Shown here one piece after another: positions 1,753 to 23,087 of a DNA stretch of 32,000 nt. The notes below the pieces were generated by a model. It had not been told where the DNA came from. It was given only the letters and a program-made list of their open reading frames with translations, and searched no databases. The stretch is from Cupriavidus necator (lineage in GTDB: Bacteria; Pseudomonadota; Gammaproteobacteria; Burkholderiales; Burkholderiaceae): the NCBI RefSeq assembly GCF_016127575.1, contig NZ_CP066019.1, forward strand, positions 660,001-692,000, written 5' to 3'. A program made the position numbers and the translations under genes. How positions within the stretch are numbered: position 1 is the stretch's first letter; each line of letters starts with the position of its first letter.

Positions 1753-1772
1753 ATCCAAAGAGAACCAAGACC

Positions 1773-2924: not shown

Positions 2925-2934
2925 GGAGACCGCC

Positions 2935-3819: not shown

Positions 3820-3830
3820 GCGCGACGGCC

Positions 3831-4994: not shown

Positions 4995-6193
4995 CAGCGA
5001 ATCAAGAGGCGGCATTCCGCGCCGAAGTCGCGCAGTGGATGGCCGCCAACCTGGCCGGCGAGTTCGCCTGCCTGAAGCACCGCGGCGGCCCCGGCGACGA
5101 AGAGGCCTATCCCGAACTGCGCAAGGCGTGGGAGCGCCGGCTGGCCGAAGGCGGCTGGACCGGCCTGGGCTGGCCGCGCGCGCATGGCGGGCGCGAGCTG
5201 CCGGTCATGCAGCAGGTGATCTTCCATGAGGAATACGCGCGGGCAGGGGGGCCGGGCCGCATGGGCCATATCGGCGAGGGGCTGATCGGCCCGACCCTGG
5301 TCGCCTTCGGCACCGACGACCAGAAGGCGCGCTTGCTGCCCGGCATCCTGAACGGCACCACGTTCTGGTGCCAGGGGTATTCGGAGCCTGGCGCGGGCTC
5401 GGACCTGGCCAATGTGCGCACGCGGGCGGAGCGCGATGCGGCCACCGGCGACTGGCTGGTGAGCGGCCAGAAGGTGTGGACCTCGCTCGCGCACGATTCG
5501 GACTGGATCTTCGTGCTGGCGCGCTGCGAGCCCGGCTCGCGCGGCAGCAAGGGCCTGGTCTTCCTGATGCTGCCGCTGGACCAGCCCGGCATCGAGATCC
5601 GGCCGATTCGCCAGATGGGCGGCGGCGCCGAATTCAACGAGGTGTTCTTCGACGGCGCACGTGCCGCCGCCGCCGATGTGCTGGGCGCGCCCGGCGATGG
5701 CTGGCGCATCGCCATGGCGCTGCTGGGCTTCGAGCGCGGCATCTCCACGCTGGGCCAGCAGATGCAGTTCACGCACGAACTGGAATGGGTGGCGCAGGCC
5801 GCGCGCGACAACGGCAGCAGCCGCGACGCGCTGGTGCGCCAGCGCATCGCGCGCGCCTGGGCCGGCCTGCGCGTGATGCGCGCCAATGCGCTGCGCATGC
5901 TGGCGGGCGCGGCGCAGGCGGGCCAGGACGGCGGCACCGCGCTGCAGCGCGACGCGCTGATCTACAAGTACTACTGGTCCAACTGGCACCGAGACCTGGG
6001 CCAGCTGGCGCTGGACGTGCTGGGTCCGCTGGCCAATGTGCTGGACGCCGGCGACACGCGCCGCACGCGGCTGCAGCAGATGGCGCTGTTCTCGCGCGCC
6101 GACACCATCTACGCCGGCACCAACGAAATCCAGCTCAACATCATCGCCGAACGCGGCCTCGGCATGCCGCGCGAAGCACGAGGACAGTCATGA
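4991..6193 (+). CDS. acyl-CoA dehydrogenase family protein, 'large' partner (400 aa)
   Basis: GGAGGA SD before ATG 4991. FWCQGYSEPGAGSDLANVRT, GQKVWTS and TIYAGTNEIQLNIIAERGLGMPRE motifs. ATGA overlaps at both ends. Confidence 0.9.
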   Translation: MTANQEAAFRAEVAQWMAANLAGEFACLKHRGGPGDEEAYPELRKAWERRLAEGGWTGLGWPRAHGGRELPVMQQVIFHEEYARAGGPGRMGHIGEGLIGPTLVAFGTDDQKARLLPGILNGTTFWCQGYSEPGAGSDLANVRTRAERDAATGDWLVSGQKVWTSLAHDSDWIFVLARCEPGSRGSKGLVFLMLPLDQPGIEIRPIRQMGGGAEFNEVFFDGARAAAADVLGAPGDGWRIAMALLGFERGISTLGQQMQFTHELEWVAQAARDNGSSRDALVRQRIARAWAGLRVMRANALRMLAGAAQAGQDGGTALQRDALIYKYYWSNWHRDLGQLALDVLGPLANVLDAGDTRRTRLQQMALFSRADTIYAGTNEIQLNIIAERGLGMPREARGQS

Positions 6194-6993
6194 CCCTGAA
6201 CACCGAAATCCCCAGCGGCCCGGCCTATGTGCCTGGCCATCAGTTGCTCGCCGGCAAGAGTGTGCTCATCACCGCCGCGGCGGGCGCCGGCATCGGCTTT
6301 GCCGCCGCGCGCCGCTGCGCCGAGGAGGGCTGCCGCGCGCTGATGATCTCCGACGTCCATGAGAAGCGCCTGGCCGAAGCGGTCGGGCGCCTGCGCGCGG
6401 AAACCGGCCTGCAGGCGATCCATGGCCAGCTTTGCGATGTATCGGATGAAGCGCAGGTGCGCGCACTTGTGGCCGCCGCCGAAGAAGCCTTGGGCGGAAC
6501 CGACGTGCTGATCAACAACGCCGGCCTGGGCGGCTCGCGCCGCCTAGTTGATATGGACGATGCCGAGTGGTCGCGCGTGATCGATATTTCCCTCACGGGC
6601 ACCTTCCGCATGACGCGAGCGATGTTGCCGCACATGCAGGCGCGCCGGCGCGGCGCCATCGTCAACAACGCCTCGGTGCTGGGCTGGCGTGCGCAGAAGG
6701 AGCAGTCGCACTACGCCGCGGCCAAGGCCGGGGTGATGGCGCTGACGCGCTGCAGCGCGATGGAAGCCGCCGAATTTGGCGTGCGCATCAATGCGGTGGC
6801 GCCCAGCATCGCGCTGCATGACTTCCTGAAGAAGTCGGCGCCGGCCGACCTGCTGCGCCAGCTCAGCGAGCGCGAAGCGTTCGGGCGCGCGGCCGAGGTG
6901 TGGGAGGTGGCCAATGTGATGGTATTCCTGGCCAGCGACTATGCCTCGTACATGACGGGCGAGGTGCTGCCGGTGAGCAGCCAGCGGGCTTGA
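6190..6993 (+). CDS. short-chain dehydrogenase/reductase (FabG-like), 267 aa
   Basis: Glycine-rich VLITAAAGAGIGFAAA, NNAGLGG and the catalytic SHYAAAKAG (YxxxK). ATGA coupling to the upstream ACAD. Confidence 0.88.
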   Translation: MTLNTEIPSGPAYVPGHQLLAGKSVLITAAAGAGIGFAAARRCAEEGCRALMISDVHEKRLAEAVGRLRAETGLQAIHGQLCDVSDEAQVRALVAAAEEALGGTDVLINNAGLGGSRRLVDMDDAEWSRVIDISLTGTFRMTRAMLPHMQARRRGAIVNNASVLGWRAQKEQSHYAAAKAGVMALTRCSAMEAAEFGVRINAVAPSIALHDFLKKSAPADLLRQLSEREAFGRAAEVWEVANVMVFLASDYASYMTGEVLPVSSQRA

Positions 6994-7033
6994 AGGGAAA
7001 CAGTTGGGACCGGGAACAACGCAGGAACCAGAC

Positions 7034-7489
7034 ATGCCAAGAATCTTCCGTTCTGCCGAAGACATCCACGCCGCCGTCGGCCAGCGCCTCGGCGAGAGCG
7101 CCTGGACCCAGATCACCCAGGAACAGGTCAACCAGTTCGCCAATGCCACTGGCGACCACCAGTGGCTGCACGTGGACCCGGAGCGCGCCGCGCAGGGCCC
7201 ATACGGCGCCTGCATCGCGCACGGCTACCTGACGCTGGCGCTGGTCAACCAGTTCCTGCCGGAGCTGGTCACGGTCGAAGGCATGAAGTGGGGCGTCAAC
7301 TACGGCTGCGACAAGGTGCGCTTCCCGGCGCCGGTGCGCGTGGGCGCGCGCGTGCGCGGGGTGGGGGAACTGGTGCGGGCCGAGACCTTGCAGGGCGGCG
7401 TGCAGTCGGTGGTGCGCATGACCGTGGAAATCGAAGGCGGAGACAAGCCGGCCTGCGTGGCCGAGACCATCAGCCGCTATTACTTCTGA
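7034..7489 (+). CDS. MaoC-like single hot-dog (R)-specific enoyl-CoA hydratase, 151 aa
   Basis: Hydratase-2 type motif [40 protein letters not shown] precedes ATG 7034; the upstream in-frame ATG at 7004 is an alternative start. Confidence 0.87.
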
Positions 7490-7502
7490 ACAGGAATCCA
7501 GA

Positions 7503-8705
7503 ATGAAAGAAGCAGTCATTGTCGCCGTCGCGCGCACACCGATCGGCAAGGCCTTCCGCGGTGCCTTCAACGACACCGAGGCCCCGGTGCTGGGCGGCCA
7601 CGTGGTGCGCGCGGTGGTGGAGCGCGCCGGCGTGGATCCGTCCGAGGTGGAAGATGTGCTGATCGGCGCGGCCGCGCAGCAGGGCACCCAGGGCTACAAC
7701 CTGGGCCGCCTGTGCGCTGTGGCGGCCGGCCTGCCGGACAGCGTGCCCGGCATGACCATGGACCGTATGTGCGGCTCGGGCCTGATGACGATCGCTGCGG
7801 GCGCCCGCGCGATCCAGTGCGGCGAGGCCGACATCATCATCGCCGGCGGCGCGGAATCTATCTCGCTGACGCAGACCAGGCACAAGAACAGCTACCGCGC
7901 CCAGTCCGAAGCGGTGCTGGCGCGGCAGCCGGCAGCCTATATGGCAATGATCGAGACCGCCGAGGTGGTGGCGCGCCGCTATGGCATCAGCCGCGCCGAG
8001 CAGGACGCCTACGCCTGGCGCAGCCAGCAGCGCACCGCCGAGGCGCAGCGGCGCGGTGCCTTCGATGACGAGATCGTGCCGCTGGAAACGCGCCGCGCGC
8101 TGTTCGACAAGGCCGGCACGCTGACCGGCCACGAGACCGTTCGGCTTGCGCACGACGAGTGCAACCGGCCCGATACCACGGCCAGCAGCCTGGAGGCGCT
8201 GAAGCCGGTCTGGAGCGGCGGCCAGGCGGTGGCCGCCGGCGAGCACATCACTGCCGGCAATGCCTCGCAGTTGTCGGACGGCGCCGCCGCGGTGCTGATG
8301 ATGAGTGCCGACGAGGCCCGCCGGCGCGGCCTGCGCCCGCTGGGCCGCTACCGCGGCATGGCGGTGGCGGGCTGCGCGCCGGACGAGATGGGGATCGGCC
8401 CGGTATTCGCCGTACCCAGGCTGCTCGCGCGCCATGGCATGACGGTGGCCGACGTGGGCCTGTGGGAGCTGAACGAGGCCTTTGCCTGCCAGGTGCTGTA
8501 CTGCCAGCAGAAGCTGGGCATCCCGGATGCGCGCCTGAATGTCAACGGCGGCGCGATCTCGATCGGCCATCCGTTCGGCATGTCGGGTGCGCGCATGACC
8601 GCGCATGCATTGATTGAAGGCCGGCGCCGCGGCGTGCAGCAGGCAGTGGTGACCATGTGCATCGGTGGCGGCATGGGTGCCGCCGCGCTGTTCGACGTTC
8701 TGTAA
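7503..8705 (+). CDS. thiolase (acetyl-CoA C-acetyl/acyltransferase), 400 aa
   Basis: [52 protein letters not shown] and [13 protein letters not shown]. Confidence 0.94.
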
Positions 8706-8775
8706 TTACAAGCAGCCCCTGCAGGGACGGCCCGCAACGAGGCCGCCTGCCATCACTCCAACCGGAGGAGACATC

Positions 8776-9741
8776 ATGAAACGACTGATCGGCGTCGCCA
8801 TGTCGCTGGCCGTGCTGGCCACCGCGGTATGGGCCTTCGCGCCGCGCCCGCTGCCGCCGTTCGCGGCCACGACGCTGCGCCCGGACGGCCTGCAGGTCAA
8901 CGGCATCGCGCGCGCCGGCGAGCGCCTGGTGGCAGTGGGCGAGCGCGGCCAGATCCTGTTCAGCGACGACCAGGGCGGCAACTGGCGCACGGCCGTGGTG
9001 GATCATCCGCAAGGCGCCGCGCTGACCCAGGTGGCCTTTGCCGACAGCCGCCACGGCATGGCGGTCGGGCACAGCGGCTGGATCTTGCGCACGGAAGACG
9101 GCGGTGCGCACTGGCAGCAGGTGGCGTTCGACGCGAGCTCGTCCGATCCGCTGCTCGGCGCCTGGGCCCAGGCGGGCGGCCCGTGGTTCGCGGTCGGCAG
9201 CTTTGGCCGCTTCCTGGTCTCGCGCGACCAGGGCAGGCACTGGGAGCCGGCCGCAGACAAGGCCATGCAGGACCGCCACCTCAACGGCATTGCCGGCGAC
9301 GGGCAGGGGCGCCTGATGCTGGTCGGCGAAACCGGCCTGGTGCTGCGCTCGCCCGACGGCGGCAGCCGCTGGGAGGTGGTGAAGTCCCCCTACGAGGGAT
9401 CGCTGTACGGCGTGCAGCCGCTGCGCGATGGCGCCTGGCTGGCCTTCGGCATGCGCGGCAACGCCTTGCGCAGCGAGGACTTCGGCGCCACCTGGCAGGC
9501 CGCGGACACTGGCCTCAAGACCTCGTTCTTCGGCGGCGTCGAGCTGCCCGATGGGCGCATCGTGCTGGCCGGGCAGGGTGGCACGATGGTGATGTCCGCC
9601 GACGGCGGGCGCCACTTCACCGCCCTGCCCGCCGGCAGCCCGCAGACCCTGGCCGCGCTGGCCCCTGCCGGCAAGGACAAGCTGGCGCTGGGCGGCAATG
9701 GCGGCCTTGCCGGCGCCACGCTCGCCGCCAACCCCCGCTGA
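8776..9741 (+). CDS. secreted BNR/Asp-box beta-propeller protein (Ycf48-like), 321 aa
   Basis: GGAGGAG SD. Signal peptide MKRLIGVAMSLAVLATAVWA. Six Asp-box-like repeats: SDDQGGNW, TEDGGAHW, SRDQGRHW, SPDGGSRW, SEDFGATW, SADGGRHF. Confidence 0.78.
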   Translation: MKRLIGVAMSLAVLATAVWAFAPRPLPPFAATTLRPDGLQVNGIARAGERLVAVGERGQILFSDDQGGNWRTAVVDHPQGAALTQVAFADSRHGMAVGHSGWILRTEDGGAHWQQVAFDASSSDPLLGAWAQAGGPWFAVGSFGRFLVSRDQGRHWEPAADKAMQDRHLNGIAGDGQGRLMLVGETGLVLRSPDGGSRWEVVKSPYEGSLYGVQPLRDGAWLAFGMRGNALRSEDFGATWQAADTGLKTSFFGGVELPDGRIVLAGQGGTMVMSADGGRHFTALPAGSPQTLAALAPAGKDKLALGGNGGLAGATLAANPR

Positions 9742-9769
9742 CCCTGGCTTACCGAATGCGAGAACGATC

Positions 9770-12211
9770 ATGACCCGCCCCCATTCCTCCGGCCGCCTGG
9801 GCCGCCTTGTCGATGCCTGCGCCAGCCTGCTGATGCACCGGCGCCGCCTGCTGCTGGTGCTGTGCCTGGCCGTGACCGTGGCGCTGGGCGCCTCGGCCAC
9901 GCGGCTGCGGCTCGATCCCGGCTTCAACAAGATGATCCCGCTGCAGCACCCGTTCATGCAGGTGTTCACCAAGTACGCGAGCACCTTTTCCGGTGCCAAT
10001 ACGGTGCTGCTGAGCCTGCGCTGGAAGGGCGACGGCGATATCTACAACGCGGCCTTCATGGACAAGCTGCGCCGCGCCACCGATGACGTGTTCTTCATCC
10101 CCGGCGTGGACCGCTCGCGCGTGTTCTCGCTGTTCACGCCCAATGTGCGCTACACCGAGGTGACGGAGGCGGGCTTTCGCGGCGACGTGGTGGTGCCGGG
10201 GCGCTTCTCCGGCACGCCGGCCGAGCTCGACAAGGTGCGCCGCAACGTGGCGCGCTCCGGCCAGATCGGCCGCCTGGTCAGCAACGACCTGAGGTCCGCG
10301 CTGATCCGCGCGGAATTGCGCGAGACCGATCCGGCCACCGGCAAGACCATCGACTACGGTTCGGTCGCGCGCCAGCTGGAGAAGATCCGCGGGGACTTCA
10401 GCGGCACCGACGTCGAGGTCAATATCGTCGGCTTTGCCAAGCTGGTGGGCGATGTGGAAGAGGGCATCGCCGGCGTGATGGGCTTCTTCGCGCTGGCCTT
10501 CGCCGTGACCGCGCTGCTGCTGTGGCTGTACACGCGCTCGCTGCGTATCACGCTGCTGTCGCTGGCGGTGGCGCTGCTGCCCGTGGCCTGGCTGCTGGGC
10601 CTGCTGCCGCTGCTGGGCTACGGCATCGATCCGATGTCGATCCTGGTGCCGTTCCTGATCTTTTCGATCGGGGTCTCGCACGCGGTGCAGATGACCAATG
10701 CCTGGAAGCAAGAGGTGGTGCAGGGACATGGTGCGCTGGACAGCGCCAGCGCGGCCTTCCGCAAGCTGTTCATCCCCGGCACGGTCGCGCTGCTGACCAA
10801 CGCGCTCGGGTTCATGGTCATCATGCGCATCGAGATCGACATCGTGCGCGAGCTTGGCATCACCGCCTGCCTGGGCGTGCTGCTGATGATCGTGACCAAC
10901 AAGGTGTTCCTGCCGATCCTGCTGTCGTACACGCGGCTGGAGCCGTCGGCGCTGGCATCGGCGCAGGCCCGGCGCGCGCACGGAACCGGCGGGCTGTGGC
11001 AGAAGTTCGGCGCGCTGGCGCGTCCGGGCCCGGCGCTGGGCGTGTTCGTTGCCGCGCTCGCGTTGCTGGCGGCCGGCGCCATCGATTCGCGCGGCCTCAA
11101 GATTGGCGATGTCGGCAGCGGCGCACCGGAACTGCGCGCGGATTCGCGCTACAACCGCGACAGCGCCAGCATCGTGAGCCAGTACAACATCGGCTCGGAT
11201 GCGCTGACCGTGGTGGTGGAACCCACCGGCTTCGACGACGGCTGCCTGCACTACCCGGTGATGAGTGCGGTGGAACGCTTCGAGATGCATATGCGCGGCG
11301 TGTCCGGCGTGCAGTCGGTGGTGAGCGTGTCGTCGCTGGCCAAGGTGGTGATCGGCGCCTACAACGAGGGCAACCCGCGCTGGGAGGCGCTGCCGCGCAG
11401 CAGCGAGGGCCTGAGCCAGGGCGCCAAGGCCTTCGACCCGGACAACGGCATGAATACCTCGAACTGCCAGGCCATCCAGGTGCTGATCTACACCGCCAAC
11501 CATGAGGGCGCCACCATCGCCCACATCATCCGCGAGATCCGCCGCTTCACCGCCGCCGACAAGACCCCCAACGTGGCGTTCCGCCTGGGCGGGGGCAATA
11601 TCGGCGTGATGGCGGCCACCAATGAGGCCGTGGAAGAAGCCGAAGTGACCATGCTGCTGTCGATCTTCGGTGCGATCACGCTGCTATGCCTGCTGACGTT
11701 CCGCTCGTGGCGCGCGGTGCTGTGCATCATCGTGCCGCTGACGCTGGTGTCGGTGCTGTGCAATGCGCTGATGGCGCGGCTTGGCATCGGGCTGAAGGTG
11801 TCGACGCTGCCGGTCATCACGCTGGGCGTGGGCGTCGGCGTGGACTACGGCATCTACCTGTATGAGCGCATCCAGCACCAGATCCGCGAGGAAGGGCAGG
11901 CCCTGCCGCAGGCCTTTGCCGAGGCCATGCGCCAGCGCGGTTCGGCGGCGCTGTTCACGGCGCTGACGATGTGCATCGGGGTGGGCACCTGGGCCTTTGC
12001 CGCGCTCAAGTTCCAGGCCGACATGGGTATCCTGCTGGCCTTCATGTTCCTGGTGAACCTGTTCGGCGCGGTGTCGCTGCTGCCGGCGCTGGCTGCGTGG
12101 CTGGGGGTGGAGGAAGAAGAGCGTGCGCGCGTGGCCGCCGGTGGTGCCGGTGGCGCCGCGCGCGGCGAGACGGTGCCGCCGGCGCACGCCCTGAAATCCG
12201 ACGCGGTGTAA
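9770..12211 (+). CDS. RND-superfamily (MMPL/HpnN-like) inner-membrane transporter, 813 aa
   Basis: N-terminal TM segment, then two repeats of a large soluble loop followed by a hydrophobic TM bundle. This size and layout are typical of the 'exporter of the RND superfamily' proteins usually found next to Ycf48-like propellers. Confidence 0.85.
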   Translation: MTRPHSSGRLGRLVDACASLLMHRRRLLLVLCLAVTVALGASATRLRLDPGFNKMIPLQHPFMQVFTKYASTFSGANTVLLSLRWKGDGDIYNAAFMDKLRRATDDVFFIPGVDRSRVFSLFTPNVRYTEVTEAGFRGDVVVPGRFSGTPAELDKVRRNVARSGQIGRLVSNDLRSALIRAELRETDPATGKTIDYGSVARQLEKIRGDFSGTDVEVNIVGFAKLVGDVEEGIAGVMGFFALAFAVTALLLWLYTRSLRITLLSLAVALLPVAWLLGLLPLLGYGIDPMSILVPFLIFSIGVSHAVQMTNAWKQEVVQGHGALDSASAAFRKLFIPGTVALLTNALGFMVIMRIEIDIVRELGITACLGVLLMIVTNKVFLPILLSYTRLEPSALASAQARRAHGTGGLWQKFGALARPGPALGVFVAALALLAAGAIDSRGLKIGDVGSGAPELRADSRYNRDSASIVSQYNIGSDALTVVVEPTGFDDGCLHYPVMSAVERFEMHMRGVSGVQSVVSVSSLAKVVIGAYNEGNPRWEALPRSSEGLSQGAKAFDPDNGMNTSNCQAIQVLIYTANHEGATIAHIIREIRRFTAADKTPNVAFRLGGGNIGVMAATNEAVEEAEVTMLLSIFGAITLLCLLTFRSWRAVLCIIVPLTLVSVLCNALMARLGIGLKVSTLPVITLGVGVGVDYGIYLYERIQHQIREEGQALPQAFAEAMRQRGSAALFTALTMCIGVGTWAFAALKFQADMGILLAFMFLVNLFGAVSLLPALAAWLGVEEEERARVAAGGAGGAARGETVPPAHALKSDAV

Positions 12212-12234
12212 GGCCGATGACCCGGAGAGACAGC

Positions 12235-13476
12235 ATGCACGATCACCAGGCTTACGCGGCGGCGGCATTCACACCGGTCCGCATCGGCCCGCTCACGCTG
12301 CGCAATCGCATTATCAAGGCCGGCGCCAACGAGGGCATGACGCCGCAGGGCCTGCCGACCGAGGCGCTGGTCAGGCACCACCGCGAGCTTGCCGCGGGCG
12401 GCGTGGGCATGACCACGGTGGCGTATGCGGCGGTGGCCGACGACGGCCTGACTTTTTCGCACCAGCTCAGTATGCGCCCGGAGCAGGTTGCGCACCTGCG
12501 CGTGCTGACCGATGCCGTGCATCGCGAAGGCGCGGCGGCCTGCCTGCAGATCACCCATGCGGGCTCGTTCACCACCATGCGCCATGGCGGCAGCCGCGCG
12601 CCGGGCAGTGCTTCATCCGGACTCAATGCCTTTGGCATGCTGCATGGCGTGTATTTCCAGCGTGCCATGCGCGAGGCGGACATGGCGCGCGTTGCCGGCC
12701 AGTTTGCCGCCGCGGCGCGGCTGGCGCGCGAAGCCGGCTTCGACGCGGTGGAAATCCACATGGGGCACGGCTACCTGCTCAACCAGTTCCTGTCGCCACT
12801 GAGCAACCGTCGGCGCGATGCGTTCGGCGGCAGCGTGGAGAACCGCACCCGCTTTCCGGCCGCGGTACTGCGCCAGGTGAAGGACGCGGTCGGCGCCGAG
12901 CTGGCGGTCTGCTGCAAGCTGAGCGTCAGCGACGGCGTGCCGGGCGGCAACGAACCCGCGGATTCCGCCGTGAGCGCGCGCCTGCTGGAGGCGGAAGGCG
13001 CCGACCTGCTGACCCTCAGCGGCGGGCGCAACGTCGAGAGCCCGTGGGCGCTGTTCGGCAGCCCCATGCCCACGGCGCAGATGAAGGCCGCCGCACCGAC
13101 CGCGGTGGCGCGCTTCGGCATCACCATGCTGGAGAAGCGCACGCCGCGCGCGCTGGCCTTTCGCGAGCTGTACTTCCTGGAGGCGTCGCGCGTGGTGCGG
13201 CGGGCGGTGCGCATGCCGCTGGCCTATATCGGCGGCGTCAAGTCGATCGGCAATGTCGCGCAGCTGATGGAAGAGGGCTTCGACTGCATCGCGCTGGCGC
13301 GCGCGCTGATCCACGATCCCGCACTGGTCGCCAACTGGCGCAGCGGCGCGGTGGCGCATTCGGCCTGTGACAGCTGCAATGGCTGCGTGGCGCGGATCTA
13401 CGATCCGGCCGGTGTCAGTTGCGTGCATGGCCCGGGCAATGACCCGGCGCTGACGAAGATTGCCGCGCTGCAGTAG
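12235..13476 (+). CDS. NADH:flavin oxidoreductase, Old Yellow Enzyme family, with C-terminal Cys cluster, 413 aa
   Basis: GGAGA SD 6 nt before ATG 12235. IRIGPLTLRNRIIKAGANEGM, QITHAGS, HMGHGYLLNQFLSPLSNRRRDAFGGSVENRTRF. C-terminal CDSCNGC-x11-C at 13366-13422. Confidence 0.88.
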   Translation: MHDHQAYAAAAFTPVRIGPLTLRNRIIKAGANEGMTPQGLPTEALVRHHRELAAGGVGMTTVAYAAVADDGLTFSHQLSMRPEQVAHLRVLTDAVHREGAAACLQITHAGSFTTMRHGGSRAPGSASSGLNAFGMLHGVYFQRAMREADMARVAGQFAAAARLAREAGFDAVEIHMGHGYLLNQFLSPLSNRRRDAFGGSVENRTRFPAAVLRQVKDAVGAELAVCCKLSVSDGVPGGNEPADSAVSARLLEAEGADLLTLSGGRNVESPWALFGSPMPTAQMKAAAPTAVARFGITMLEKRTPRALAFRELYFLEASRVVRRAVRMPLAYIGGVKSIGNVAQLMEEGFDCIALARALIHDPALVANWRSGAVAHSACDSCNGCVARIYDPAGVSCVHGPGNDPALTKIAALQ

Positions 13477-13551
13477 TCCGATGGGACGATGAGCCGCCGG
13501 CCAGACGCTCTTATCTTGAAGGTCCCACGGGAATTCAAGGAGACAGACGCC

Positions 13552-14652
13552 ATGACCGCTGACGGCAACCAGACTGGCTACAAGACCGGCTACAAGATCG
13601 AATCACGCCCGCTCGAGGCCCGCTACGCGCGCGGCTGGCATTGCCTCGGCCTGGCCGATGGCTACCGCGACGGCGTGCCGCACACGCTGAATATCTTCGG
13701 CCGGCGCCTGGCGGCGTTTGCCGACTCGACCGGCGCGATTCGCGTGATCGACGGCTACTGTCCGCACATGGGCGCAGACCTGAGCACCGGCACCGTGCAG
13801 GGCGACAACCTGGTCTGCCCGTTCCACGGCTGGCAGTGGGGCGGCGACGGCGGCTGCAAGTCCATTCCCTACTGCAAGCGGGTGCCGCCCAAGGCCCGCG
13901 TCGGCGCCTGGGAGACCTGCGAGCAGAACCACCTGCTCTTCATCTGGCACGATCCCGAAGGCCGCCCGGCACCCCTCGAGGTGGCGATTCCGCGCATCGA
14001 TGCCTGCTTCTCTTCGGATTGGTCGGACTGGGCCATCGACGAGATGCTGATCCGCACCAATTGCCGCGAGCTGGTCGACAATATCTCCGACATGGCGCAT
14101 TTCGGCACGGTCCATGGCGCGCCGGTGGACTATTTTGCCAACCTGTTCGAAGACCACAAGGCCACGCAGCTGATGATCGGGCGCAGTGCCCGGCTCTCGG
14201 GCGATGCGCAGCTGACGGCGCTGTCCACGTACTTCGGGCCCGCATACCACATCACCGAGATGATCGGACAGATGGGCGACCAGCAGATCCACTCGATCCT
14301 GCTCAACTGCCATGTGCCGATCGACCTCAACAGCTTCGCGCTGCGCTACGGCGTGTTGGTGAAGAAGATCCCGGGGCTGTCCGAGGAACAGAACCGTGCC
14401 ATGGCGCAAGCCTATGTGGAGCAGGCCAAACAGGCCTTCTACGAGGACGTGGCGATCTGGGACAGCAAGATCCGCATCGACAACCCGTTGCTGTGCGAAG
14501 GCGACGGGCCCCTCTACCAGATGCGTGACTGGTACCAGCAGTTCTACACCGACGTGGAGCAGGTGCGGCCGTCCAGCGTGGCACGGCGCATCTTTGAGCT
14601 GAACCCGGGCAATATCGAACCGCCGGCGCTGCGGCATGTGTTCGAGGCCTGA
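13552..14652 (+). CDS. Rieske [2Fe-2S] non-heme-iron oxygenase, KshA-like (3-ketosteroid 9alpha-hydroxylase oxygenase family), 366 aa
   Basis: AAGGAGA SD. Rieske motif CPHMGADLSTGTVQGDNLVCPFH (C-x-H-x16-C-x2-H, from nt 13759). RGWHCLGLA and WQWGGDGGCKSIPY resemble KshA. Mononuclear iron motif DNISDMAHFGTVH. Confidence 0.87.
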   Translation: MTADGNQTGYKTGYKIESRPLEARYARGWHCLGLADGYRDGVPHTLNIFGRRLAAFADSTGAIRVIDGYCPHMGADLSTGTVQGDNLVCPFHGWQWGGDGGCKSIPYCKRVPPKARVGAWETCEQNHLLFIWHDPEGRPAPLEVAIPRIDACFSSDWSDWAIDEMLIRTNCRELVDNISDMAHFGTVHGAPVDYFANLFEDHKATQLMIGRSARLSGDAQLTALSTYFGPAYHITEMIGQMGDQQIHSILLNCHVPIDLNSFALRYGVLVKKIPGLSEEQNRAMAQAYVEQAKQAFYEDVAIWDSKIRIDNPLLCEGDGPLYQMRDWYQQFYTDVEQVRPSSVARRIFELNPGNIEPPALRHVFEA

Positions 14653-15470
14653 TGGCAACCTCCACGGAACCTCGCACCATGAAAACCGTCGTCATTACCG
14701 GAGCCGCGTCCGGTATGGGCGCGGCCGTGCGCCAGCGCATGCTCGCCGACGGCTGCCGGGTCATCGGCATCGACCTGCGCGATGCCGACATCGTTGCCGA
14801 CCTGTCCAGCCCGCAGGGCCGCGCTGCCGCGATCGACGCCGTACTGTCGCGGTCAGGCGGCCGCATCGACCGGCTGGTCTGCTGCGCCGGCCTGGGCCCG
14901 CATGTCGAACCCGCAACGCTGGTGGCATCGGTCAACTACTTCGGCTTGGTAGCACTGCTGGATGGCCTGTTCGAGGCGCTGCGCCAGGGCTCGGATCCGT
15001 GCGCCGTGGTGGTGTCGTCCAACTCGGCCACGCTCCAGTCCTGGGAGGGCAGCCCGCTGCGTGATGCCTACCTTGCCGGCGATGAGCCAGGCGTGTGCAC
15101 GATGGTGGCGGCCGCCGCGGCGGCGGAAGCCACCCGGGACCAGGCTGGCTATATCGCCTATGCCAGTTCCAAGCATGCGGTGGCGGCGGCCGCGCGGCAA
15201 CGTGCGGCCGCGTGGGGACAGGCCGGCGTGCGCCTCAACGTGGTCGCGCCGGGGGCGGTGGAAACGCCGCTGCTGCAGGCCGGGCTGAAGGATCCGCGCT
15301 ATGGCGATGCCATTCGCGATTTCCTGCCGCCGCTTGGGCGCCGCGCCCAGCCTGAAGAGGTGGCCGCGCTGATCGCGTTCCTGTGCGGGCCGCACGCTGC
15401 CTACATCCATGGCAACGTGGTGTTCATCGACGGCGGCCTGGATGCCGCGCAGCGACCGCTGAACTTCTGA
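14652..15470 (+). CDS. SDR closely resembling 3alpha-hydroxysteroid dehydrogenase/carbonyl reductase (Comamonas HsdA type), 272 aa (263 aa if it starts at 14679)
   Basis: From memory, alignment with C. testosteroni 3alpha-HSD/CR is striking: IGIDLRDADIVADLS, LVCCAGLGP, SVNYFG, AAAWGQAGVRLNVVAPGAVETPLLQAGLKDPRYG, PPLGRRAQPEEVAALIAFL, IDGGLDA. TGATG overlap with the Rieske gene. ATG 14679 (MKTVVITG) is the alternative start. Confidence 0.88.
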   Translation: MATSTEPRTMKTVVITGAASGMGAAVRQRMLADGCRVIGIDLRDADIVADLSSPQGRAAAIDAVLSRSGGRIDRLVCCAGLGPHVEPATLVASVNYFGLVALLDGLFEALRQGSDPCAVVVSSNSATLQSWEGSPLRDAYLAGDEPGVCTMVAAAAAAEATRDQAGYIAYASSKHAVAAAARQRAAAWGQAGVRLNVVAPGAVETPLLQAGLKDPRYGDAIRDFLPPLGRRAQPEEVAALIAFLCGPHAAYIHGNVVFIDGGLDAAQRPLNF

Positions 15471-15481
15471 TCTCCTGGCCA

Positions 15482-15525
15482 ATGGGGCATCCGCCGCGAG
15501 CCGCGGCGGATGCCCCATTTTTGTT
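15482..15525 (+). terminator. Rho-independent terminator closing the 14-gene + strand operon
   Basis: Perfect 17-bp stem ATGGGGCATCCGCCGCG / CGCGGCGGATGCCCCAT with a 3-nt loop, followed by TTTTGTT. Confidence 0.85.
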
Positions 15526-15541
15526 CGATGGCGCTCCGGAC

Positions 15542-15664
15542 TTACGTGACCATGACATCGTCCTGCATCCGGCGCTCGCGTTCGCCGGGATACAGGGCCT
15601 TCATTTCGAGGTAGAAGCACTCGGCGCAGCCCGGGTTGCAATCGGAGCGGCTGGGCTTTGCCAT
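15542..15664 (-). CDS. hypothetical 40-aa Cys-containing small protein (MAKPSRSDCNPGCAECFYLEMKALYPGERERRMQDDVMVT)
   Basis: ATG to TAA. Third-codon positions are almost all G/C, like genuine host genes. It lies between two convergent terminators. No family recognised. The only SD-like element is the GGGGG of the upstream hairpin. Confidence 0.35.
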   Translation of the reverse strand: MAKPSRSDCNPGCAECFYLEMKALYPGERERRMQDDVMVT

Positions 15665-15665
15665 G

Positions 15666-15701
15666 TAAAAACCCCCAAAAGTCGTCTCCGACTTCTGGGG
15701 G
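15666..15701 (-). terminator. Rho-independent terminator downstream of the DUF1329 gene
   Basis: On the - strand: CCCCCAGAAGTCG-GAGA-CGACTTTTGGGGG (13-bp stem, one G:U) followed by TTTTTAC. Confidence 0.7.
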
Positions 15702-15770
15702 CAGTTCAGGGCGGGGAGGGGAGCGCGACCGGGCGCCAAAGGCTGCGCCCGGCCGGATATCACGATGGGA

Positions 15771-17150
15771 TCAGGTACCCGACCCGCGCGCGGCGTCCGG
15801 GGAGAAGAACGCCTCGTTGAATTCCGGGCTGTTGTTCAGCGTTGCCATCGGGCCTTCGTTGGTCAGGCGGTCGGCCATGTAGGCACCCGAAATCAGGTCA
15901 TGGTAGAACACCGTGGTCGGATAGTAGCGGCGTGCATCATAGGCGTACACCGAGGCCTGGAGATTGGTGCGCCACAACTGGCCCCGGCCATCGTAGTTGT
16001 CGGCCGCCAGGGCCAGCCAGCTGTCTTCGTCGAGATACAGCACGCGTTTCGCATACTGGTGCCGGAAACCGGACTTGAGCGTGGCTTCCAGTACCCATAC
16101 CCGATGCGGTTCATAGCGCATCGCGTCCGGATTGGCATGGCCATTCGTGAGCAGCTCCTTGTACTTGACGGAAGTGCTCTGCAGCTTGTAATTGTGGTAC
16201 GGGACGAAGATCTCTTTCTTGCCGACGATCTTCCAGTTGTAGCGTTCGCCCGAGCCGTTGAAGAGGCGGTCGTCGTCCACGGTGCGGAAGCCGCCGGGAC
16301 CCTGGGGCTGGTCAAAGCCGAATTCCGGCGCCTGGCGCACCCGCCGCGTGCCCGGGTTGTAGATCCACGTGCGGTTGGTGTCGGAACCCTCCTGGTCCCA
16401 GACCGCGTAGCCAACGATCACCTGGCCGCGGTCACGCAACGGCAGGTCGGTGGCGGTGCGGAAGAAGGAGCGCTCGTTGAGGGCGCTGCGCGGGTCGAAC
16501 TTGCCATTGTTGCGCGGCGACAGGATGCTGTACGAGACGCGCCCCCACGCGATCGAGCCGTTCGGATACACCACGGCCTGGTCGAACTGAGCCTTCTCGG
16601 TGCCGATGGCCGACGAGAAACGCTGGTTCCACAACAGCTCCATCGCGGTTTTCGGAATCGGGTAGGGAACCTGCGGACCCGCTTCCTTCAGGCCGTTGGC
16701 ATCGCTCGTCATGCTGACGGTGGTGGCGTAGGTGCGGATGTCCTTGTAGACCGCGTCCTCGTAGCGGAAATCGCGATGGCTTGGGTACACCGGCATCTTG
16801 AAGGTGTCGGGATACTTCTTGAACAGCGCCTTCTGCCCGTCGCTAAGCCGCTCGGCATACTGCGCCATGTTCTGCGCCGTGATGACGAACAGCGGCTTCT
16901 CATCGGCATACGGGTCCGGGTAGCGTTCGCCGCGCTGGTATTTGACATGCGCCGGCGTGCCCAGCCACTTGCCGGACCATGCCGGGACCTCGCCGTCCTT
17001 GCTGGCGGCACGCTCGGCGCCCATCGGCGTGAGGGGGCCATCCAGTTGCTTGAGCTCCTCCGGGGTGGCCTTCGCCCACGATGCCGCCGCCAGGGCCATG
17101 CTGGTGAGCAGCAGGCCACCGCGTATCAGTTGTCTTGTGCTGGATTTCAT
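15771..17150 (-). CDS. DUF1329 domain protein (periplasmic, LolA-like 'outer membrane lipoprotein-sorting' family), 459 aa
   Basis: GGAG SD. Signal peptide MKSSTRQLIRGGLLLTSMALAAASWA. The sequence (ELKQLDGPLTPMGAERAASKDGEVPAWSG...YPDTFKMPVYPSHRD...) matches my recollection of DUF1329 proteins. Confidence 0.85.
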   Translation of the reverse strand: MKSSTRQLIRGGLLLTSMALAAASWAKATPEELKQLDGPLTPMGAERAASKDGEVPAWSGKWLGTPAHVKYQRGERYPDPYADEKPLFVITAQNMAQYAERLSDGQKALFKKYPDTFKMPVYPSHRDFRYEDAVYKDIRTYATTVSMTSDANGLKEAGPQVPYPIPKTAMELLWNQRFSSAIGTEKAQFDQAVVYPNGSIAWGRVSYSILSPRNNGKFDPRSALNERSFFRTATDLPLRDRGQVIVGYAVWDQEGSDTNRTWIYNPGTRRVRQAPEFGFDQPQGPGGFRTVDDDRLFNGSGERYNWKIVGKKEIFVPYHNYKLQSTSVKYKELLTNGHANPDAMRYEPHRVWVLEATLKSGFRHQYAKRVLYLDEDSWLALAADNYDGRGQLWRTNLQASVYAYDARRYYPTTVFYHDLISGAYMADRLTNEGPMATLNNSPEFNEAFFSPDAARGSGT

Positions 17151-17388
17151 TGAAGTCTCGCTCCTTGTAAAGAGGAATTGCCGGCGCCGGCTGTGCCTGT
17201 GCCTGTGGTGACAGCGTAGTGATGGCGCGGCGGCGGGGAATCGTTGGAACGGACTAGTGGATTTCCCTAGCGCCCGGCGTGGCGGAGGGGGCGGGGACAA
17301 TCCGGGTGGCGTGCCAGCATCCCGCGAGGATTGCGGGAGCGTACCGGGGTGGTACGGGAAGGGGGGCGGGGGTAGGGGGACTTAAACG

Positions 17389-17420
17389 GCGCGAGGCCGG
17401 GCAAGTGCCCGGCCTCGCGC
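17389..17420 (-). terminator. GC-rich hairpin (terminator-like) between the ACAD pair and the DUF1329 gene
   Basis: 14-bp perfect stem GCGCGAGGCCGGGC / GCCCGGCCTCGCGC with a 4-nt loop, 32 nt after the ACAD stop. The U-tract is weak (GTTTAAG on the - strand). Confidence 0.45.
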
Positions 17421-17451
17421 GCCAGCATGCGGCCAGCGGCCGCAGCCAGGG

Positions 17452-18579
17452 TCAGGCTTCCATCACTTCGCCGAAGCGCTGCAGGTGGTAGTCGCTGTCG
17501 CCCAGCAACTGGTCCAGCATGGTCAGGCGCTTGAAGTAGTCGCCCACGGACAGCTCATCGGTCATGCCCATGCCGCCATGCAGCTGCACGGCCTGCTGGC
17601 CGACGAAGCGCCCGGCGCGGGCCAGCGTCACCTTGGCCGCGGACAGCATGCGGCGGCGCGCGGCGGGATCGGCCTCGTCCAGCGCCTGGACTGCGACGTA
17701 GGCCATCGACAGTGCCAGCTCCTTCTGCACCAGCATGTCGGCCATGCGGTGCTGCAGTGCCTGGAAGCTGGCCAGCGGCTTGCCGAACTGCTGGCGCGTG
17801 CCCAGGTACTCGGCGGTGATCTCGATCAGCTTTTCCATGGCGCCGGCGCCCTCGGCGCACAGCGCGGCAACGCCGTGCTCAAGGCCCACGCCCAGCGCGG
17901 CCAGGCCGTCGGCGGGCTGGCCCACCAGCGCGTTGGCCGGCACCGTCACGTCCTGCAGCGACAGGTCGGCGGCGCGCAGGCCGTCGACGGTCGGGTAGGC
18001 GGTGACGCCCAGGCCCTTGCTGTCGCGCGGCACCAGGAACAACGCAATCTCATTGCTGCCGGCCACGCGCGCGGTCAGCAGGTAGGCGTCGGCGGCGGCG
18101 CCGTGCCAGACCACGCTCTTGATGCCGTTGAGCACGTAGCCGTCGCCGCTGCGCTCGGCGCTGGCGCGGGCCGATTCCGGGCGGTAGCGGGTGGTCGGCT
18201 CCAGGTAGGCCAGCGTGACGATGCGCTCGCCCGAGGCGATCGCGGGCAGCCATTGTTCCTTCTGCGCGGCGCTGCCGTGGGCGGCCAGGATGGCCGCGGC
18301 CATCACGCCGCTGGGCGTGACCGGCTCCAGCACCAGGCCGCGGCCCAGTTCGCGCTGCACCACCAGCTGGCTGGCGGGGCCTTCGCCGAAGCCGCCGAAG
18401 TCGGCCGGCACGGTCAGGCCCAGCACGCCCATTTCAGCGAGCTTGTTCCACACGCCGCGATCCAGGCTCTCGCCTGCGCGCGCGCTCTTGCGGCGGGCCT
18501 CGAACGTGTATTCGGTATCGATGAAGCGACGCAGGCTGTCCGCCAGCATCTGTTGCTCTTCGCTGTAGGTGAAGTCCAT
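17452..18579 (-). CDS. acyl-CoA dehydrogenase family protein, 'small' partner (375 aa)
   Basis: MDFTYSEEQQMLADSLRRFID start. TRQQFGKPLASFQALQH and VQLHGGMGMTDE. Starts 13 nt after the upstream ACAD. Confidence 0.9.
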   Translation of the reverse strand: MDFTYSEEQQMLADSLRRFIDTEYTFEARRKSARAGESLDRGVWNKLAEMGVLGLTVPADFGGFGEGPASQLVVQRELGRGLVLEPVTPSGVMAAAILAAHGSAAQKEQWLPAIASGERIVTLAYLEPTTRYRPESARASAERSGDGYVLNGIKSVVWHGAAADAYLLTARVAGSNEIALFLVPRDSKGLGVTAYPTVDGLRAADLSLQDVTVPANALVGQPADGLAALGVGLEHGVAALCAEGAGAMEKLIEITAEYLGTRQQFGKPLASFQALQHRMADMLVQKELALSMAYVAVQALDEADPAARRRMLSAAKVTLARAGRFVGQQAVQLHGGMGMTDELSVGDYFKRLTMLDQLLGDSDYHLQRFGEVMEA

Positions 18580-18592
18580 GTCAGCTATCCCT

Positions 18593-19786
18593 TCAGAAAC
18601 CCAGGATCATCTTGGAGATGATGTTCTTCTGCACTTCGGTCGCGCCGCCGTAGATCGAGGTCTTGCGCATGTCGTAGTAGGTGGAGGCGGCAGGGGCGGC
18701 CCAGTCGGGGCCCGCCACCGGCTGCGTCGCGCCCGGCTCAAGCCAGTCCGGCGAATACGGCCAGGCGTTGGGGCCGGCCACTTCCATCATCAGCATGCCC
18801 AGGTCCTGCTGCACCTCGGAGCCGCGGATCTTGACGATCGAGGCCTCGGGGCCGGGGGTGCCGGCGGCCTGCGTGGCGACGCGAAGCAGCAGCATTTCCA
18901 GCGCCATGATGTCCATCTCGACGCGGGCGATCTTGTCGCGCATGCGCACGTCTTCGATCAGCGGGCGGCCGGCGCCGTCGGTGGCCTGGCTGGCGTAGTG
19001 CTTGAGCAGGCGCAGCTCGCGGTGGCAGTGGCCGATGCCGGCAATGCCGGTGCGCTCATGGCCGAGCAGGTACTTGGCATAGGTCCAGGCGCGGTTCTCT
19101 TCGCCGACCAGGTTCCCGACCGGCACTTCCACGTCTTCGAACCAGGTCTCGTTGACGTCATGGCCGCCGTCGAGCGTCTTGATCGGGCGCACCGTCACGC
19201 CGGGCGACTTCATGTCGATCAGCAGCATCGAGATGCCTTCCTGGGCCTTGGCCTCCGGGTCGGTGCGCACCAGGCAGAAGATCCAGTCGGCAAAGTGGGC
19301 CATGGTGGTCCAGGTCTTCTGGCCGTTGACGATGTACTTGTCGCCCTTGCGCACCGCGCGCGTCTTCAGCGAGGCCAGGTCGGAACCCGAGCCCGGCTCG
19401 GAGTAGCCCTGGCACCAGAAGTCGTCGATATTGGGGATGCGCGGCAGGAAGCGCTGCTGCATCTCGGGGCTGGCGTACTTCATCAGCACCGGCCCGATCA
19501 TGGTCAGGCCGAACGGCAGCAGGCGCGGCGCGCCGGCGCGGAAGGTCTCGATCTCGAAGATCAGGCGCTGCAGCGCGGTCCAGCCGGTGCCGCCCCATTG
19601 CCTGGGCCAGGTCGGCGCACCCCAGCCGCGCGCCTGCAGGATGCGGTGCCAGCGGATGTAGTCGTCCTTTTCCACGCGCTGGTGGTTGAGAACCTTGTTG
19701 CGGATGTCTTCCGGCAGGCTGGCCTGCGCGAATGCGCGGACCTCCTCGCGGAAGGCCTGTTCCTCGGCGGTGAAACGCAAATCCAT
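18593..19786 (-). CDS. acyl-CoA dehydrogenase family protein, 'large' partner (397 aa)
   Basis: AGGGGA SD. MDLRFTAEEQAFREEVRAF, FWCQGYSEPGSGSDLASLKT, GQKTWTT and SIYGGATEVQKNIISKMILGF. Confidence 0.92.
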   Translation of the reverse strand: MDLRFTAEEQAFREEVRAFAQASLPEDIRNKVLNHQRVEKDDYIRWHRILQARGWGAPTWPRQWGGTGWTALQRLIFEIETFRAGAPRLLPFGLTMIGPVLMKYASPEMQQRFLPRIPNIDDFWCQGYSEPGSGSDLASLKTRAVRKGDKYIVNGQKTWTTMAHFADWIFCLVRTDPEAKAQEGISMLLIDMKSPGVTVRPIKTLDGGHDVNETWFEDVEVPVGNLVGEENRAWTYAKYLLGHERTGIAGIGHCHRELRLLKHYASQATDGAGRPLIEDVRMRDKIARVEMDIMALEMLLLRVATQAAGTPGPEASIVKIRGSEVQQDLGMLMMEVAGPNAWPYSPDWLEPGATQPVAGPDWAAPAASTYYDMRKTSIYGGATEVQKNIISKMILGF

Positions 19787-20029
19787 CTGAATGTCCCCTG
19801 TGGTACGCGGGCCGCGCGGCGCTTCTTGCCCTGCCTGGTTGTGCAGTGCGTCAAAGCGGCGGCCCTCACTGTGCCGGCCGATTGTAGGGGCCGGGCGCGA
19901 TTCTTTGCTTCATCAATGATAAAGCCGTCCTTCGTGGAGGCGGAACCACCTGCGCCGGGTGGTGGCGGGGCGAACTGCGGCTGGCCAGTGGCGTTGACGA
20001 ACACGGCCTTAGTGAATTCCAAATGGCTG

Positions 20030-20045
20030 CGGCACGGGGCTTGCA
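20030..20045 (+). promoter_or_regulatory. candidate sigma54 (RpoN) -24/-12 promoter
   Basis: cGGCACG-GGGC-TTGCA against consensus TGGCACG-N4-TTGCW. The GG-to-GC spacing is exact. It lies about 85 nt upstream of ATG 20131. Confidence 0.5.
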
Positions 20046-20130
20046 GCAAACTGATGCAGCCAGTTTCATGTGGCCGGGTGTATTCCGCCGCATATCCGAG
20101 TCAGCCTGCATCGAGAGACCCACCAGCACC

Positions 20131-21651: not shown

Positions 21652-21708
21652 GCGCCCGCCGGGCCCGCCGGCCCCGGGCAATATCAGCCATACCTGGAGG
21701 AGACAATA

Positions 21709-22680: not shown

Positions 22681-22734
22681 GGGGGGAGGGGCTTGGGGGC
22701 TGGTTCGATGTTGTTGTAGGTCGACGGCCCTGTT

Positions 22735-22799
22735 CCGCCCTGCTGGGCGGGTCACTTTCTGTCCGAGCGACAGAAAGCGACTCGCCCCTTTAGGGGCGA
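22735..22799. repeat. REP-like block of three consecutive hairpins downstream of the Bug gene
   Basis: CCGCCC-tgct-GGGCGG; GTCACTTTCTGTC-cgagc-GACAGAAAGCGAC (13 bp, one mismatch); TCGCCCC-ttta-GGGGCGA. Confidence 0.5.
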
Positions 22800-22961
22800 A
22801 ACCGGGGCCTCTCCAAGAGCCACCACCACAAATCTGCCGAAATACCTTCTTGAATGCCATCAAGGCATCGCCTGTGAGCCGTGATGCGTGCCTTCGCCAA
22901 GGCGTGGAGTTCTCCGCTCTGTGGATGTCGGCAACTGACGCTCAACTTAGCGTATCGATCC

Positions 22962-23006: not shown

Positions 23007-23087
23007 GGATGGGCTGCTAATACAGCAGGAGCCGGGAGTGAGAACCCGATCAACGTTACCTCCTCTTCTACGCTATGGAGGTCAGCA

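Follow-up and report, generated by a model that had tools for sequence, protein, structure and literature searches.

A candidate steroid envelope transport system encoded in three separate units on chromosome 2 of Cupriavidus necator H16

A 32-kb stretch of chromosome 2 of Cupriavidus necator H16 (AM260480.1, 734,663-766,662; hereafter the window, that is, the whole stretch analysed, with positions counted from its first letter) carries a beta-propeller gene and a large RND membrane protein gene in the middle of a degradative operon, with a DUF1329 gene convergent to them and no DUF1302 barrel gene in view, which raises the question of where the barrel is and what such an arrangement does. The DUF1302/DUF1329/BNR/RND set is recurrent and its mechanism unsettled (PMC6394551; bioRxiv 10.1101/072470; PMC10866462), as the original prediction, made from the letters of the window, had also stated. 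That prediction held the set to be split and to lack DUF1302 here, and took this to argue that the components can work modularly, probably in uptake or envelope trafficking of a hydrophobic substrate rather than in efflux. The parts at issue are the following.

8776 (ATG) to 9741 (stop), plus strand: Ycf48-like BNR beta-propeller of 321 aa, periplasmic or membrane-anchored.
9770 (ATG) to 12211 (stop), plus strand: lipid-type RND inner-membrane transporter of 813 aa, HAE3-like, with a sterol-sensing-domain fold.
13489 to 14652, plus strand: KshA-type 3-ketosteroid 9-alpha-hydroxylase oxygenase (Pfam KshA_C, 248 bits, and Rieske).
15771 to 17150, minus strand: secreted DUF1329 protein of 459 aa (Pfam DUF1329, PF07044, 415.6 bits, cut-off 23.1).
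Outside the window, on the same chromosome, AM260480.1 670,605 to 672,167: full-length DUF1302 (PF06980), CAJ95395.1, Pfam 455.8 bits.
Order of the unit holding that DUF1302 gene: short-chain dehydrogenase/reductase (SDR), DUF1302, 2-oxopent-4-enoate hydratase (tesE-like), tesF-like, tesG-like.

The H16 set is complete, its four parts being distributed 1+2+1 (barrel; propeller and RND; DUF1329) over three transcription units and about 80 kb of one steroid region. The window sits inside a steroid nucleus (KshA / C,D-ring) catabolic region of the proteobacterial 9,10-seco type, and the operon that contains the propeller and RND genes is assigned to steroid catabolism because the KshA gene marks it so. 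We lean, with modest confidence, towards reading the propeller, the RND protein, DUF1329 and the distant DUF1302 as a dedicated steroid envelope transport system of this 9,10-seco gene set, for which the inward direction is favoured.

The apparent absence of the barrel arises because the view had been limited to the 32-kb window. Pfam scans of all open reading frames (ORFs) of the window supported by third-position GC disclose neither membrane-fusion nor outer-membrane-factor genes, as originally predicted, and tblastn with three DUF1302 queries finds no DUF1302 gene or remnant in the window (best E = 0.04) and none within 10 kb on either side; nor is there a DUF1302 remnant between the pair of acyl-CoA dehydrogenase (ACAD) genes and DUF1329. 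CAJ95395.1 was located by a search with a Paraburkholderia DUF1302 as query and then through the members of 90%-identity clusters. Its gene is 62.5 kb to the left of the window; the propeller and RND genes are about 71 kb from it and the DUF1329 gene about 78 kb. The H16 sequence seen between the barrel locus and the window comprises all but about 42 kb (AM260480.1, roughly 682-724 kb). The H16 barrel is about 60% identical to the barrels of Paraburkholderia and of a plasmid-borne C. necator steroid cluster, and its neighbours are of the same catabolic type: the adjoining 2-oxopent-4-enoate hydratase scores 432 bits, above the NCBIfam cut-off, and an HsaD-like hydrolase, a ketosteroid isomerase-like NTF2 protein and a TetR gene lie opposite the unit. 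No DUF1329 gene or remnant stands beside this DUF1302. Of the earlier claim, the splitting of the set thus holds and the lack of DUF1302 does not; likewise, the idea of modularity is supported, the parts evidently functioning when encoded apart, and the window gives no evidence that they work without the barrel.

The propeller gene, found with its six Asp boxes as described, encodes a protein with a hydrophobic N-terminus (MKRLIGVAMSLAVLATAVWA, followed by FA) and [ST]xDxGxx[WF] boxes starting at residues 63, 106, 149, 192, 233 and 274, a spacing of about 43 residues. It matches the Pfam families PSII_BNR (62.4 bits, cut-off 27) and BNR (38.6 bits), and its best sequence matches in the PDB are Ycf48-like proteins. 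The photosystem II assembly factor Ycf48 itself was considered and rejected (NF010237, 63.7 bits against a cut-off of 326), the two being different proteins of a shared fold family. Only 28 nt separate the propeller stop from the RND start, and all homologous loci examined have the propeller gene directly upstream of the RND gene; the propeller is the RND protein's partner of the AmeC / PP_2018 type.

The RND protein matches the Pfam families MMPL (104.8 bits) and Sterol-sensing (32.6 bits), and its hydropathy fits 12 transmembrane (TM) segments and two large periplasmic loops. Its best NCBIfam match is HAE3 (TIGR00921, 180.6 bits, E 4e-53), below the curated cut-off of 351.9. The charged residues D287 (TM4), K676 and D692-Y693 (TM10) do not vary among 45 homologues, a pattern consistent with proton coupling. 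The AlphaFold2 model of the protein (predicted local distance difference test, pLDDT, 74) finds its best Foldseek matches in MmpL4/5, MmpL3, HpnN, NPC1, NCR1, NPC1L1, Patched and Dispatched (query-normalised TM-score, TMq, 0.62-0.70); the top 50 matches contain no AcrB-type HAE1 pump and are all lipid-type RND or sterol-sensing-domain (SSD) proteins. The modelled fold places the protein in the lipid/sterol branch of the superfamily, the one to which the sterol importers NPC1 and NPC1L1 also belong.

Two narrower identifications of the RND protein were set aside. The hopanoid transporter HpnN, a grouping that would have detached the gene from catabolism, scores far too low (TIGR03480, 86.3 bits against 751.85; NF052374, 40.4 against 1100), and the neighbours of the H16 gene are steroid catabolic genes. 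As for a tripartite HAE1 pump of the AcrAB-TolC type, the window holds no genes for the accompanying membrane-fusion and outer-membrane components, and ACR_tran reaches 32 bits over one TM bundle; the earlier view that this is not a classical tripartite efflux pump is borne out.

A second line of evidence comes from Pseudoduganella, in which the RND protein is fused at its C-terminus to a 3-oxosteroid 1-dehydrogenase (KstD; match to PDB 7P18, E 8e-189). The fusion of Pseudoduganella ginsengisoli (L010:10001-14104) is a continuous ORF of 1367 aa whose RND part is 68% identical to the H16 orthologue, and such fusions are present in four independent cluster representatives (including P0104, P0106 and P0108). 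By topology the KstD domain is predicted to be cytoplasmic, and the simplest reading of an RND protein joined to the first enzyme that attacks the rings is substrate delivery. At the same locus (L010:4054-6396) the operon's two adjacent ACAD genes are also fused, into one protein of 780 aa.

The DUF1329 gene lies 3.56 kb from the RND stop, convergent to it and downstream of the ACAD pair at 17452-19786, all of which agrees with the original description. It stands between two hairpins, one of them terminator-like. The elements around it are as follows.

15671 to 15702, minus strand: intrinsic-terminator-like hairpin with a T-run, just past the DUF1329 stop (folding -31.1 kcal/mol, z = -6.5).
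17388 to 17423, minus strand: strong GC hairpin past the ACAD stop and upstream of DUF1329 (-36.8 kcal/mol, z = -5.4), without a T-run and not called a terminator.
15474 to 17453: presence/absence segment of 1.98 kb (1,980 bp), defined by blastn against the Cupriavidus sp. TMH.W2 locus L096.
15542 to 15664, minus strand: remnant of a radical-SAM/SPASM sulfatase-maturase gene, 40 codons, with a CX3CX2C motif.

The signal peptide of DUF1329 ends in SWA, before KA. Foldseek searches with its AlphaFold2 model (pLDDT 90.7) return LolA3 (9tp6, E 7.6e-18, target-normalised TM-score, TMt, 0.81), the DUF1329 structure 4z48 and 3bk5, followed by LolA, LolB and RseB. The LolA-like half-barrel corresponds to the C-terminal ~290 residues, and the extra N-terminal domain of ~150 residues has no structural match in Foldseek. 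LolA3, 4z48, LolA, LolB and RseB bind acyl chains or lipoproteins; on the strength of the modelled fold, DUF1329 is proposed to be a periplasmic carrier for a hydrophobic ligand. The H16 protein retains 52/52 of the columns invariant among 61 homologues.

The breadth of the association was assessed by an alignment scan for DUF1329 with one genome per species, which yielded 80 loci, annotated by tblastn. Steroid genes are present in 71 of these 80 related DUF1329 loci. The position of the barrel, the co-occurrence count that the original prediction had called for, falls into three classes:

DUF1302 immediately upstream of DUF1329: 56/80 loci, in 52 of which tesEFG follow.
DUF1302 non-adjacent but within 10 kb, next to tesEFG: 7/80 loci.
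DUF1302 not in view: 17/80 loci.

In the first class KshA lies within 10 kb in 31 loci and the RND gene within 10 kb in 24, and wherever a surveyed locus extended far enough the propeller stands beside the RND gene. The last class is made up largely of Cupriavidus with an H16-type DUF1329 (11 of the 17; 88-92% identity), 9 of which have DUF1329 directly after the ACAD pair; cluster listings place DUF1302 orthologues of many of these species elsewhere in their genomes. The RND homologues of Burkholderia, Paraburkholderia, Pseudoduganella and C. basilensis (68-82% identity) and that of TMH.W2 are encoded after a thiolase gene and the propeller gene and, where KshA is present, before it; in the first four of these taxa DUF1302 and DUF1329 lie 5-9 kb away beside tesEFG-like genes. 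The barrel operon of Burkholderia and Paraburkholderia is of the H16 type, but with DUF1329 lying between DUF1302 and tesE, and in C. basilensis DUF1302 is divergent from DUF1329 and not adjacent to it. The C. basilensis DUF1302 (L011:19365-20937) gives matches over three reading frames and is thus frameshifted, either a pseudogene or an assembly error. In addition, a plasmid-borne second steroid cluster of another C. necator strain holds all four genes together. DUF1302-DUF1329 pairs are also found in steroid clusters of Rhodocyclales and Pseudomonas, namely those of an Aromatoleum metagenome-assembled genome (DUF1329 53% identity) and P. protegens (52%). The steroid-cluster DUF1329 clade spans Cupriavidus to Pseudomonas at identities of at least 50%. 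Judged by gene content and order, the four-gene set is a conserved part of Burkholderiales steroid clusters.

Among close relatives of H16, the place of the DUF1329 gene differs. The 1.98-kb presence/absence segment comprises the DUF1329 gene, its upstream region, its terminator and the gene remnant. In blastn alignments TMH.W2 matches window positions 1-15473 at 93.6% identity and 17454-22686 at 94.2%, with no alignment in between; the site is occupied in TMH.W2 by 127 unrelated bases (L096:15708-15834), so that the SDR gene is followed directly by the ACAD pair. TMH.W2, whose RND protein is 97% identical to that of H16, has instead a DUF1329 of 67% identity, encoded about 5 kb upstream of the DUF1302-tesEFG unit, at a site where H16 has none. 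This complementary placement speaks for a requirement for one DUF1329 whose function does not depend on the site of its gene.

The remnant within the segment corresponds to the N-terminal part of the maturase, its ORF beginning MAKPSRSDCNPGCAECFY... In C. phytorum and C. neocaledonicus DUF1329 is followed by a sulfatase of 765-800 aa, in C. phytorum with a full maturase of 437 aa before the sulfatase. To judge from this comparison, the remnant is what is left of the maturase and sulfatase module that follows DUF1329 in these sister species, which hints at a lost steroid-sulfate module in H16. At the same place C. phytorum has, in addition, a LuxR gene and DUF1254/DUF1214 pairs. A third DUF1329 lineage (65% identical) occurs in Cupriavidus loci L097-L100 as a solo gene at the end of an AraC-regulated Dabb/SDR/alcohol-dehydrogenase operon, with no DUF1302, propeller or RND gene within 10 kb and a sulfatase 6-8 kb upstream.

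For the favoured system the substrate and the physical hand-off are inferred, as is, above all, the inward direction; the route would comprise the following steps: (i) a hydrophobic steroid such as testosterone or androstenedione would pass the outer membrane through the DUF1302 barrel; (ii) the LolA-like DUF1329 carrier would pick it up in the periplasm; (iii) DUF1329 would pass it to the propeller-RND complex at the inner membrane; (iv) the RND protein, driven by the proton gradient, would insert the steroid into the inner membrane or move it across; and (v) KstD and KshAB would then act on it in the cytoplasm.

Published work on related sets provides the background for such a scheme. The four families cofit in several bacteria, split sets included, and 2+2 splitting has been published for P. 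stutzeri RCH2 and P. putida KT2440. Growth of P. putida on Tween 20 requires all four homologues, and growth on butyl stearate three of them (PP_0765, PP_0766 and PP_2018), whereas they are dispensable on free fatty acids. AlphaFold predictions have DUF1329 binding either the barrel or the propeller and RND, the predicted DUF1302-DUF1329 complex reaching an interface predicted TM-score (ipTM) of 0.84 with DUF1302 as an 18-strand barrel. Reviews describe steroid uptake across the Gram-negative envelope as poorly understood, and no paper was found in which the system is presented as conserved in steroid clusters, only passing mentions. ORF25/ORF26 of C. testosteroni TA441, considered as a propeller/RND pair, are shown in the papers to be amidases.

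The closest directly studied relative is AmeABCD of Castellaniella defragrans, in which AmeA is a DUF1302 protein, AmeB a DUF1329 protein, AmeC a COG4447 propeller and AmeD an HAE3 RND protein; H16 has the same four families, its RND protein being HAE3-like. The likeness, which is one of family and gene context, extends to the location within a betaproteobacterial catabolic island devoted to a hydrophobic substrate, to the propeller gene directly upstream of the RND gene, and to the absence of a membrane-fusion or TolC-type gene. AmeABCD forms a single A-B-C-D cassette in a monoterpene island, whereas H16 spreads three units over about 80 kb of a steroid region; the single cassette order of barrel, carrier, propeller and RND is not found in H16, whose units lie about 71 to 78 kb apart. 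The sets of P. putida (PP_0765/PP_0766, DUF1302/DUF1329, and PP_2018/PP_2019, BNR/RND), P. stutzeri RCH2 and Shewanella are split as in H16 and linked by cofitness, and an AlphaFold-based shuttle model exists for sets of this type; they are 2+2, with barrel and carrier together, in contrast to the 1+2+1 layout of H16, where the barrel is apart from the carrier, and their substrates are fatty esters, not steroids. A LuxR-type regulator lies near these sets, and in H16 a LuxR-type gene for a 395-aa protein lies about 8 kb left of the window.

Among better-known transporters, HpnN and MmpL3/4/5 have the RND lipid-transporter fold in common with the H16 protein (TMq 0.62-0.67), and HpnN is its best PDB sequence match (E 7e-9); on the other hand, the H16 protein falls far below the HpnN family cut-offs, no hopanoid biosynthesis genes are near it, and HpnN itself works without barrel, carrier or propeller partners. 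In the NPC2-to-NPC1 pathway (NPC1L1, NCR1) a soluble sterol carrier delivers sterol from the extracytoplasmic side to an SSD-bearing RND protein and into the membrane. Against NPC1, NCR1 and NPC1L1 the H16 model reaches TMq 0.67-0.70, a resemblance to be taken as analogy only: DUF1329 is LolA-like and not of the NPC2 fold, and the H16 RND protein has no NPC1 N-terminal domain. The known steroid importers encoded in steroid clusters, Mce4 (Actinobacteria, cholesterol) and the TonB-dependent EdcT (Novosphingobium), differ in belonging to unrelated protein families and in their energy source, which is ATP for Mce4 and TonB for EdcT.

Several points weigh against a dedicated steroid importer. At this locus the case for it is a computational one, and it is orthology and location that suggest the distant DUF1302 as the partner of this DUF1329. 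Ten promoter regions of the three H16 units share no operator motif, no 11-mer occurring in at least three of them and no 12-mer (one mismatch, <80% GC) in at least four; in addition, solo DUF1329 genes stand in non-steroid operons of other Cupriavidus strains. Nearly all characterised bacterial RND proteins are exporters. The one directly studied homologous cassette, AmeABCD, has been read as a monoterpene-tolerance exporter (PMC6394551), the RND protein of the P. stutzeri Chol1 steroid cluster is an efflux candidate in a bile-acid review, and C. testosteroni ORF61 (DUF1329) is reported as dispensable for steroid degradation. Direction is beyond what computation can settle and is unproven. 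A serious, if rather unlikely, rival is that the same four-part system exports steroid or its intermediates as a tolerance device. Besides the habit of bacterial RND proteins and the proposal for Chol1, it draws on the transient excretion of intermediates by steroid degraders, on the export activity of the closest structural matches, MmpL3/4/5 and HpnN, and on the AmeABCD deletion, which lowered monoterpene tolerance and raised Nile Red accumulation (PMC6394551). The export direction of AmeABCD is itself unproven, however, and its mutant has a growth defect on hydrocarbon monoterpenes that is not seen on oxygenated ones, which fits uptake equally; P. putida mutants fail specifically on bulky esters as growth substrates, a fusion of the RND protein to cytoplasmic KstD is easier to understand as substrate delivery, and a LolA-like soluble carrier with a barrel differs from known efflux-pump architecture. 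The earlier preference for uptake over efflux is plausible and gains some support from the fusion.

The remaining explanations are less probable still. Price et al. suggested that what the system exports is a lipid of the envelope or a cell-wall component; this would remodel the outer membrane upon contact with membrane-active hydrophobic substrates. In Shewanella and P. stutzeri the four genes are cofit, with pleiotropic phenotypes; this, the reported presence of DUF1302 and DUF1329 in Delftia outer-membrane vesicles/nanopods and the movement of envelope lipids by HpnN and MmpL relatives speak for this minor rival. It is made improbable by the dedicated paralogous sets in single catabolic clusters (steroid, monoterpene and the second steroid set on the C. 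necator plasmid), by the coherence of the steroid-cluster DUF1329 clade from Cupriavidus to Pseudomonas, and by the KstD fusion, which ties the RND protein to the steroid itself. That the H16 propeller, RND protein and DUF1329 work as a three-part system without any DUF1302 would agree with the empty window and its 10-kb flanks, but is very improbable given a full-length, family-typical DUF1302 62.5 kb away that is orthologous to Burkholderia steroid-cluster barrels adjoining DUF1329, and given the DUF1302 cluster members of many H16-type Cupriavidus species. Least credible of all is the reading of DUF1302 and DUF1329 as enzymes (the initial suggestion for P. putida was an esterase), with the RND pair unrelated: the Tween 20 and butyl stearate fitness data were originally read so, yet DUF1329 has a LolA carrier fold and no hydrolase match, DUF1302 forms a barrel of 18 strands, testosterone offers no ester bond, and the same research community later turned to a transport hypothesis.

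The wider gene map of the window (GC 69%) was drawn from third-position GC and Pfam/NCBIfam scans, with signal peptides and TM segments judged by eye and hydropathy, and comprises the following further features.

Left edge to 15470, plus strand: long operon (third-position GC and Pfam/NCBIfam).
First part of the operon, plus strand: ACADs, thiolase, SDR, two further ACADs.
Middle of the operon, plus strand: SDR, MaoC hydratase, thiolase (7503-8705), propeller, RND.
Last part of the operon, plus strand: Old Yellow Enzyme (OYE) flavoprotein, KshA (13489-14652), SDR.
15481 to 15519, plus strand: operon-closing terminator (folding -38.3 kcal/mol, z = -6.2).
17452 to 19786, minus strand: the two ACAD genes preceding DUF1329, pimC/pimD-like (large and small subunits).
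After the ACAD pair: acyl-CoA ligase, then a TctC-family binding protein.

The ACAD pair stands upstream of DUF1329 on a shared strand in 9 Cupriavidus species. Besides KshA, ACAD pairs and thiolases in the window, the region contains an HsaC-like dioxygenase and IpdAB-like genes, and the left flank comprises HsaC-like, IpdAB-like, ECH and NMO genes and the LuxR-type regulator; in NCBIfam the flanking dioxygenase matches HsaC best and the hydrolase HsaD, both below cut-off. The LuxR-type gene (L005:1179-2363) encodes a C-terminal LuxR/GerE helix-turn-helix and gives a weak GAF match, which makes its product a candidate TesR-like regulator; in Pseudomonas, DUF1302/DUF1329 pairs usually have a LuxR-type regulator as neighbour. 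On the right, window positions ~22700-23588 are low in GC and without a convincing gene, and synteny with C. necator N-1 ends exactly there, N-1 having a toxin-antitoxin pair and a transposase in place of the TctC and ligase genes; this stretch is probably the right border of the steroid island. The genes at 23589-29170 (hydratase, HpcH aldolase, PrpD-like, CoA-transferase III, ACAD) may belong to another pathway, and just past a LysR gene to the right of the window (L001:1-7005) lie an unrelated type I secretion ABC/HlyD pair and a giant cadherin/RTX-repeat protein. An Rfam scan of the window at the gathering threshold gave zero matches.

The four-gene system, its unsettled mechanism, its occurrence in catabolic islands and its 2+2 splitting are already published, as are, in passing notes, the DUF1329 of the C. 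testosteroni steroid cluster and the RND protein of the Chol1 cluster. What this analysis adds is the place of the H16 barrel gene, the division of the set into 1+2+1, the presence/absence segment with DUF1329, the extent of the association with steroid genes, and the RND-KstD fusion, which is a new handle on transport direction. A bolder proposal, possible but held more tentatively than a dedicated steroid transport system as such, is that these proteins are the long-sought Gram-negative steroid uptake machinery, with an NPC2-to-NPC1-like hand-off ending at KstD and DUF1329 as an exchangeable, substrate-specific adaptor. If true, the adaptor role would explain (i) the differing DUF1329 lineages and places among close Cupriavidus genomes, (ii) the solo DUF1329 genes in other catabolic operons, and (iii) the linkage to sulfatase and maturase genes in sister species, possibly for steroid sulfates. 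C. necator H16 is genetically tractable, and each part should be deletable without polar effects on the others because the parts stand in three separate units. With strain ATCC 17699 using testosterone for growth (PMC4810484), H16 offers a convenient test case for the system.

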